64,000 nt of DNA from Escherichia coli. GTDB lineage: Bacteria > Pseudomonadota > Gammaproteobacteria > Enterobacterales > Enterobacteriaceae. Under the pieces are notes generated by a model, which ran no database searches, was not told the DNA's origin, and was given only the letters and a program-made list of their open reading frames with translations. The stretch lies in NCBI RefSeq assembly GCF_024700885.2, contig NZ_CP117016.1, one strand, 5' to 3'. A program made the position numbers and the translations under genes. Within the stretch, counting starts at the first letter, position 1; each line of letters starts with the position of its first letter. Positions 49,861-51,515 of this stretch are shown here, piece after piece.

Positions 49861-50149
49861 CATGGCCCCCTAATTCGTGTTACTAGACAACGTTATTCGA
49901 GGTTCAATGCGTTTTTATCTGAAGCAACTTCAGTATACCAATAAGTAAGGGTATTCACCGAATTTTTAAAGGGGGGAACAGATAAATTTTTGCTTTTAAG
50001 ATTTATATGAACAATAAAACAGCATGTCATTCATATTTTTTTAGCATATTGTGCAATTATTTTGAGGAAGTGTAGAAATTTTGTACTCAAAATTTGTAAG
50101 TAAAATAAAAAAGCCGGGGCGACCCGGCAAAAACAAAAATCACTGCATA

Positions 50150-50395
50150 TTATTCGCTGACAAACCAGTCATCGGCGCTTTCCCACGTTTCCTGGAGAAT
50201 TTCGCTAATGCGCTGTTTATCTTCTTTTGTTGCGCCAATAACCGATAAATTATTCGCTGCGGCATAACGTACCGATACGTGGCCTTCATTATCAGGAAAC
50301 GCATACTGAATACGGCGGGAAAGTTCGCCAGCCAGGGCGTCAATAGCCCCAGCTGGCAATGGAGAAGTTTTCGCTATGGTGACTTCAATTCGCAT
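50150..50395 (-). CDS. dinI: DNA damage-inducible protein DinI
   Basis: 81 aa MRIEVTIAKTSPLPAGAIDALAGELSRRIQ...; LexA box immediately upstream. Confidence 0.95.
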   Translation of the reverse strand: MRIEVTIAKTSPLPAGAIDALAGELSRRIQYAFPDNEGHVSVRYAAANNLSVIGATKEDKQRISEILQETWESADDWFVSE

Positions 50396-50416
50396 AATAG
50401 CCCCCTGTTGAATATA

Positions 50417-50432
50417 CTGGTTATTTATACAG
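50417..50432. promoter_or_regulatory. LexA (SOS) box of dinI
   Basis: CTGGTTATTTATACAG = CTG-N10-CAG palindrome 22 bp upstream of the dinI start. Confidence 0.85.
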
Positions 50433-50468
50433 GTAAAATAACCTAATGACAACAGGAAGCTACGATTT

Positions 50469-51515
50469 TTATTGTTTAACGGACCAGCGTACCGTTTCCC
50501 CGGCGAGGAATGGCACCAGTGTGTCATCAGTCAGTGCGATGCTTGCAGCAACCTGTTGTTCTTCGTGGACCAGTTCGATGAATGTGTCGTTGACCGGCAA
50601 GCCATAGAACTGCGGGCCGTTTACAGAACAGAATGCTTCAAAGTGCTGCAGAGCATTCATCTCTTCAAAGACGGTAGCGTAACTGCCCAGCGCGGTTGGG
50701 GCGTTGAAGCAGCCCGCGCAGCCGCAGCTGCTCTCTTTGCGATGACGTGCATGCGGCGCAGAATCCGTACCGAGGAATACGCGATTAAAACCGCTGGCGA
50801 CCAGTTCACGCAATGCCTGTTGGTGAATATTGCGTTTGAGGATGGGTAGACAATACAGATGTGGACGCACGCCACCAACCAGCATATGGTTGCGGTTAAA
50901 CATCAGATGCTGCGGAGTGATGGTGGCAGCCAGCCGTTCATTTCCGTTACGGACATAGTCGGCAGCATCTTTGGTGGTGATGTGCTCAAAAACGACTTTC
51001 AGCGCAGTCAGGCGCTGGCGCAGCGGTTCCATCACGCTTTCTATAAAGCGTGCTTCACGATCAAAAATGTCGATATCTGCATGTGTCACTTCACCATGCA
51101 CCAGTAACGGCATACCGATTTTTTCCATGCGCTCAAGTACCGGCATGATTGCGTCAACTGACGTCACGCCGTGACTTGAGTTAGTAGTTGCGTTTGCCGG
51201 GTAAAGTTTTGCAGCGGTGAACACGCCTTCGTTAAATCCGCGCTCTAGCTCATTAGGGTCTAGTGAATCTGTCAAATAACAGGTCATCAGCGGGGTGAAA
51301 TCGTGCCCGGCAGGTACGGCGTCAAGAATACGCTGGCGATACGCCACGGCGGCCCCAACGCTGGTCACGGGCGGAGCCAGATTGGGCATTACGATAGCCC
51401 GTCCATAAATTTCGCTGGTATACGGCACGACAGTTTTTAACATGTCGCCATCGCGGAGGTGAAGGTGCCAGTCGTCTGGGCGGCGGATCTTTAATACCTG
51501 GGATGGTGCAGTCAT
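50469..51515 (-). CDS. pyrC: Dihydroorotase
   Basis: [23 protein letters not shown] metal-binding HxH motif; 348 aa. Confidence 0.95.

Follow-up and report, generated by a model that had tools for sequence, protein, structure and literature searches.

The dinI gene of Escherichia coli K-12 is induced 49-fold by AZT, with a 39-fold dependence on LexA cleavage (lexA3) and a heterology index of 4.8 (PMC11228462), and it is among the top UV-induced genes (PMC3009722). Its product stabilizes RecA filaments, and overproduction of DinI blocks SOS induction (PMC12448304). In Salmonella enterica, nalidixic acid raises dinI expression 22.8-fold, and the LexA box ends at a distance of 19 nt from the start codon; together with its homologues on the prophages Gifsy-1, -2, and -3, dinI shows heterology indices of 3.9–5.3 and strong induction by nalidixic acid (PMC8072944). 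For Klebsiella pneumoniae, LexA occupancy of dinI in ChIP drops with mitomycin C, the transcription start site mapped by dRNA-seq falls within the LexA box, and expression is induced by mitomycin C, ciprofloxacin, and UV (PMC10907235). Outside the dinI family, changing CTG to AGC in the SOS box of qnrD, which is carried by plasmid pDIJ09-518a, abolishes SOS induction (PMC8789287).

Here we compare these systems with the dinI locus in a 64-kb stretch of E. coli chromosome, referred to as the window. The neighborhood is encoded on the minus strand and comprises solA, bssS, dinI (50395..50150), pyrC (51515..50469), and yceB. The dinI coding sequence (50150..50395, minus strand; 81 amino acids plus stop) was assigned from its open reading frame, its identity with MG1655, and a match of its product to the DinI family in Pfam (PF06183; 102.1 bits against a cut-off of 24.2, E = 2e-29). 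An intrinsic terminator, GCCGGGTCGCCCCGGC followed by a T-run, was detected downstream by a terminator scan (50103..50128, minus strand). On the other side, the pyrC stop codon (50469..50471, minus strand) lies 16 nt ahead of the −35 hexamer of dinI. From the pyrC stop to the dinI start, the dinI strand reads TAA-aaatcGTAGCTTCCTG-TTGTCA-ttaggttattttacctg-TATAAA-taaccagtatattcaacAGGGGGctatt-ATG.

Within this interval, the minus strand carries the 16-mer CTGTATAAATAACCAG at 50417..50432, which corresponds to CTGGTTATTTATACAG on the plus strand. Read from 50432 to 50417, it has the CTG-N10-CAG core of LexA operators, with A or T at nine of the ten spacer positions, and it is enclosed by a 20-bp imperfect palindrome, ACCTGTATAAATAACCAGTA (50415..50434, minus strand). 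A gap of 21 nt (50416..50396) separates the 16-mer from the A of the dinI ATG at 50395; this places the edge of the box at offset 22, in agreement with the initial annotation, which had located it 22 bp upstream of the dinI start. Between the end of the 20-mer and the ATG there are 19 nt, as for Salmonella dinI and the three Gifsy homologues, though the boxes of the latter group and of Salmonella are nearer to consensus than that of E. coli (PMC8072944). We scored the element on a LexA matrix built from 17 other E. coli boxes (PMC3009722 Table 4), with dinI itself excluded. On this dinI-free matrix the 20-mer reached 21.0 bits, compared with 13.7–28.1 bits for the 17 boxes from which the matrix was made. 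The fit to proven LexA sites extends over the whole 20-mer, including the A/T-rich spacer and the CTGTAT...ACAG outline, and the 25-mer given as the dinI LexA motif in the same published table is also the one present here. The 16-mer is likewise identical to that of the qnrD box, which differs in its promoter, its gene, and its location on a plasmid. With very high confidence, we identify this element as the canonical SOS box through which LexA controls the chromosomal dinI promoter of E. coli, an already known, textbook element. This conclusion draws on the observed sequence, statistical specificity, promoter position, K-12 identity, and conservation of the site, and on the literature for its LexA dependence and induction by damage.

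The box overlaps the promoter of the gene that it regulates. The promoter was read by eye and then checked by conservation, yielding a putative −35 hexamer, TTGTCA (50447..50452, minus strand), and, 17 nt after it and within the LexA box, a putative −10 hexamer, TATAAA (50424..50429, minus strand). This near-consensus combination (TTGTCA/17 nt/TATAAA) matches the sigma-70 consensus at 10 of 12 positions; the automated promoter scan missed it because the scan demands a T at position 6 of the −10 hexamer. Transcription is predicted to start at 50416..50418 (minus strand), in the right half of the box and 6–8 nt past the −10 hexamer, and the Shine-Dalgarno sequence AGGGGG follows at 50401..50406 (minus strand). 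Across 89 distinct orthologous sequences, conservation is at least 90% in the TTG of the −35 hexamer and in the G columns of the Shine-Dalgarno sequence, and the 17-nt spacing between the two hexamers is fixed and ungapped. In K. pneumoniae, the orthologous dinI (dinI/DinR) also lies downstream of pyrC, and its box overlaps the mapped start site and is occupied by LexA in ChIP (PMC10907235). The presence of the −10 hexamer within the box and the parallel with K. pneumoniae bear out the earlier description of the box as correctly positioned.

On the plus strand, a TTCGCA-18-TATACT arrangement at 50389-50418 faces antisense toward pyrC, matches the consensus at 9 of 12 positions, and has a −10 element that overlaps the box. 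It is included among the two plus-strand matches of the promoter scan, a number at chance level (1.4 expected).

Between the pyrC stop codon and the dinI ATG, every base of the window agrees with MG1655. The LexA box of MG1655 dinI (b1061) has the same 20-bp sequence at the same distance from the ATG and the same flanks (solA-bssS-dinI-pyrC-yceB), and, by offset from the dinI ATG, the 16-mer corresponds to MG1655 positions 1121509-1121524. The DinI proteins are identical at 81 of 81 residues. While the regulatory region is without differences, dinI differs from its MG1655 counterpart by two synonymous changes and a 3-nt indel in the 3′ UTR.

In Klebsiella, a genus-specific dinI 3′ UTR is processed into the sRNA DinR (PMC10907235). 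The 3′ UTR of E. coli dinI, in contrast, is short; the 3-nt insertion relative to MG1655 falls within it at about 50133-50140, in a T-rich stretch directly upstream of the dinI terminator (GATTTTTGTTTTTG against GATTTTTTTTG). To our knowledge, no DinR-like sRNA role has been described for this 3′ UTR.

We also examined variation of the locus within the species. An 801-bp query matched 5425 of 5426 complete E. coli genomes. The 91-bp stretch that contains the promoter and the box (50385-50475) is identical in 3736 of 5425 genomes, and for the 34 nt around the box, 4727 of 5424 share the same sequence and 674 differ by one base. Four sampled variants have changes at outer positions of the 20-mer only and leave the core unaltered: AAC in place of ACC at the left end brings the score up to 25.0 bits, and at the right end, where the window has CAGTA, CAGTG scores 18.7 bits and CAGCA 19.5 bits. 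Two of the 5426 genomes serve as contrast cases of a broken locus. In E. coli MLI108K1 (L127:2478-3900), ISKox3, a member of the ISL3 family, is inserted within the LexA box with an apparent 8-bp target duplication (ATAAATAA) and parts dinI from the −35 hexamer, the −10 hexamer, and the left half-site. In E. coli ST2747 (L128:2440-2550), dinI is deleted, and one breakpoint lies directly after ...TTTTACC, at the edge of the box. A further insertion, IS1A between bssS and dinI in E. coli GPEC403-625 (L126), is downstream of dinI and leaves the promoter and box unaffected.

The initial annotation had also judged SOS regulation of the locus to be intact. This holds for the cis elements, given the K-12 identity of the interval and of DinI and the published LexA dependence in K-12. 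Since lexA and recA lie outside the window, intact regulation is documented for the cis elements only; that dinI would be regulated in this strain is an expectation from its identity with K-12. Control of dinI by the SOS response might therefore have been lost through defects elsewhere in the genome, for instance in lexA or recA, with the box itself intact, and the insertion in MLI108K1 and the deletion in ST2747 illustrate that rare broken loci exist. However, natural E. coli seldom lose lexA or recA function, and the cis elements of the window and its DinI protein are those of K-12. We consider a loss of this kind very unlikely.

An alternative reading is that the element is a chance CTG-N10-CAG match without a regulatory role. 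The loose pattern is indeed common: dinucleotide shuffles predict 13.6 copies for the 64-kb window, which contains 29. Over-represented and non-specific, it is of no use alone as a criterion for SOS boxes. A copy at 8569, for example, has an all-A/T spacer, lies within a 446-aa open reading frame, and scores 4.6 bits. For the 20-mer upstream of dinI, in contrast, the exact score distribution gives a per-position probability of 5.4e-8, equivalent to 0.0035 expected sites in 64 kb. Its score is thus far above chance, which substantiates the earlier report of an SOS box upstream of dinI. The runner-up scores in the window, 11.1 and 11.0 bits, represent noise, since 1.4 sites of at least 11 bits are expected by chance. 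Other LexA candidates, at 2658, 37836, and 8569, were rejected on chance-level scores. Salmonella dinI has a second, very weak box with a heterology index of 17.6 (PMC8072944), whereas the E. coli window contains no second site above 11.1 bits.

Conservation across Enterobacterales bears on the same question. Orthologues were retrieved with a pattern from the conserved C-terminus of DinI (ETWESADDWF), which is coding and blind to upstream DNA, using one genome per species. The search returned 120 loci, and the 109 with a recognizable start codon and enough upstream DNA were used. These comprise 92 loci directly downstream of pyrC, from genera that include Escherichia, Citrobacter, Enterobacter, Klebsiella, Pantoea, Erwinia, Serratia, Rahnella, Dickeya, Pectobacterium, and Brenneria, and 17 located elsewhere (paralogues). 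All 109 carry a box, scoring 17.4–29.5 bits overall and 18.6–29.3 bits in the paralogues. The box ends 14–23 nt ahead of the ATG in 108 loci and 60 nt ahead in the remaining one (L073). When the 89 distinct orthologous sequences were aligned, the only invariant columns were CTGTA, CAG, and ATG. With its 21.0 bits, the E. coli box ranks with the weakest orthologous boxes and is well within the range of proven sites. Invariance of the CTGTA and CAG columns, the score of the full 20-mer, and identity with the published LexA-dependent site of K-12 make a chance match exceedingly improbable.

The operator suggests the following course of events. A LexA dimer would bind the 20-bp imperfect palindrome and, because the −10 hexamer and predicted start of a strong sigma-70 promoter fall within this palindrome, the bound repressor would occlude both and shut out RNA polymerase; from this arrangement we infer both where exactly transcription starts in E. 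coli and that repression works by steric exclusion. Upon DNA damage, RecA filaments on single-stranded DNA would stimulate self-cleavage of LexA and the operator would be vacated. The derepressed promoter would then give rise to a dinI mRNA of approximately 310 nt terminating at 50103-50128, and the 81-aa DinI would in turn modulate RecA filaments. Data contradicting the LexA-operator explanation were not encountered in the analysis.

The same region is predicted to form a strong hairpin. Sense RNA spanning 50475..50385 folds at −28.3 kcal/mol (z = −5.3 relative to shuffles). The 5′ arm of the long hairpin, GTAGCTTCCTGTTG (50450..50463, minus strand), ends in the TTG of the −35 hexamer and lies upstream of the dinI transcription start; the 3′ arm, CAACAGGGGGCTAT (50397..50410, minus strand), covers the dinI Shine-Dalgarno sequence. 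The arms pair over 14 bp, including three G·U pairs (GUAGCUUCCUGUUG, 50463..50450, with CAACAGGGGGCUAU, 50410..50397), and the resulting stem encloses 39 nt that hold an inner stem, such that the promoter and LexA box are enclosed. Because the 5′ arm is upstream of the inferred dinI start site, the long stem is possible only in read-through RNA from pyrC. The terminator scan detected no canonical intrinsic terminator between pyrC and dinI, and transcripts of pyrC presumably continue through the promoter and operator of dinI into the gene.

It is scarcely conceivable that the palindrome serves mainly to form a hairpin, in RNA or DNA, at the 3′ end of pyrC and that its resemblance to a LexA box is secondary: although the box sits inside this strong fold and contributes part of its sequence to the 8-bp inner stem (GGTTATTT/AAATAACC), conservation falls precisely on the bases contacted by LexA, CTGTA and CAG, the 17 paralogues retain strong boxes yet mostly lack the outer hairpin, and LexA dependence has been published (PMC11228462). 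A role of the region as a LexA operator and a role as a hairpin are compatible rather than exclusive.

Comparisons between families indicate that the hairpin is probably a selected RNA structure. Pairing between the 16 nt ahead of the ATG and sequence upstream of the box involves at least 5 of these nucleotides in 88 of the 92 pyrC-linked orthologues. The sequences of the arms are family-specific, with complementarity kept: they are GCCCCCTGTTG/CAACAGGGGGC in Enterobacteriaceae, TTGCCTCCG/CGGAGGCAA-like in Erwinia, Pantoea, and Serratia, and CCTCTTT/AAAGAGG in Dickeya. RNAalifold returned no consensus structure for all 89 orthologous upstream regions because the register of the anti-Shine-Dalgarno arm differs between families, and it was replaced by a register-free duplex test combined with partner swaps. 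The duplex energy was −17.4 kcal/mol with the own partner, compared with −9.1 kcal/mol with a shuffled upstream region. Swapping partners between families cost 5–10 kcal/mol in most comparisons, with the exception of Serratia against the other types, where the loss was smaller. For the Pectobacterium/Brenneria and Rahnella types, these tests gave no specific pairing signal within 34 nt.

Within Enterobacteriaceae, the core stem is kept in 85–96% of sequences, and there is almost no covariation (74.8% of cells paired, compared with 72.9% in shuffles). Nearly all changes in the stem are from C to U on the 5′ arm, converting C-G to U·G pairs. Given this near absence of covariation within the family, the support for the hairpin comes from the differences between families. 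Folding energies weakly favor the sense over the antisense strand (58 vs. 33, counts that are not phylogenetically independent); with so weak a preference, folding energy does not settle whether the element acts as RNA or DNA. A search of Rfam yielded no significant family, and the sole match to the hairpin, "mir-231" (E = 1.2), is attributable to chance.

The 3′ arm of the hairpin suggests an effect on translation. We computed the cost of opening positions −14 to +3 around the dinI start. For the window, this cost is 18.0 kcal/mol in read-through RNA, compared with 5.3 kcal/mol in the mRNA derived from the dinI promoter. The median difference across the 92 orthologues is 8.8 kcal/mol, with 78 exceeding 3 kcal/mol. 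It is −0.1 kcal/mol for the 17 non-syntenic paralogues and 0.4 kcal/mol for 56 control open reading frames of the window (95th percentile 4.5, maximum 8.7). By computation, the ribosome-binding site is thus predicted to be occluded in read-through RNA and accessible in mRNA started at the promoter of dinI itself.

An arrangement of this type is known from insertion sequences. Davis, Simons and Kleckner are said to have described in 1985 a "fold-back inhibition" that protects the transposase gene of IS10 from outside transcription. At the left end of IS200, the transposase gene is similarly protected from transcription originating outside the element (PMC4513863). In both, as in dinI, the 5′ arm of an inverted repeat lies upstream of the gene's own start, and only read-through RNA covers the ribosome-binding site. 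The dinI hairpin has this IS10-type geometry, with a 5′ arm upstream of the inferred start site and a 3′ arm that includes AGGGGG. It differs from IS10 and IS200 in that dinI is an SOS gene on the chromosome, transcription from upstream would originate in the housekeeping gene pyrC, and the effect is predicted here by computation.

We tentatively suggest that the hairpin may provide translational insulation of dinI from pyrC read-through. The hairpin may also be new: within the literature that was searched, we found no description of it or of pyrC-dinI read-through, which is not proof of absence. If insulation operates, read-through RNA from pyrC would carry a closed dinI ribosome-binding site, while mRNA from the LexA-controlled promoter, which is without the 5′ arm, would be open; synthesis of DinI would then depend on LexA release alone.

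Next in our order of preference, the hairpin would be a stem-loop that protects the 3′ end of pyrC transcripts terminated by Rho. An untranslated dinI segment could trigger Rho termination and leave the hairpin as the protective 3′ end of pyrC mRNA. Insulation and protection are compatible for this reason, as the untranslated segment would invite Rho. Protective stem-loops (PMC6061677) resemble the dinI hairpin in being stable, in following a gene, and in having no U-run; unlike them, the dinI hairpin surrounds an entire promoter with its operator, and the Shine-Dalgarno sequence of the next gene forms its 3′ arm. In the Term-seq tables covered by the analysis, we found no pyrC 3′ end at the hairpin; the only pyrC 3′ end listed there is internal to the gene, near its 5′ end.

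An atypical terminator of pyrC ranks third. A canonical intrinsic terminator was ruled out, as the stem is G+C-rich but is not followed by a U-tract: the 8 nt after the stem contain one to five T (mode three), with five in only 3 of 89 orthologues, and the hairpin was not reported by the terminator scan. A palindrome acting at the DNA level is the least favored of the four readings. We continue to prefer translational insulation.

As the dinI operator is a textbook element, confirming it matters as quality control only, in showing that this part of the E. coli chromosome is ordinary and that its dinI SOS operator is intact. For the annotation of SOS boxes, the comparison shows that CTG-N10-CAG alone is insufficient for calling. 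The hairpin, if real, would be a chromosomal case of the fold-back insulation known from insertion sequences, and would explain how a dose-sensitive SOS gene can lie 16 nt behind an unterminated housekeeping gene. If insulation of this kind does occur, a dose-sensitive modulator of RecA would be shielded from pyrimidine-regulated transcription.
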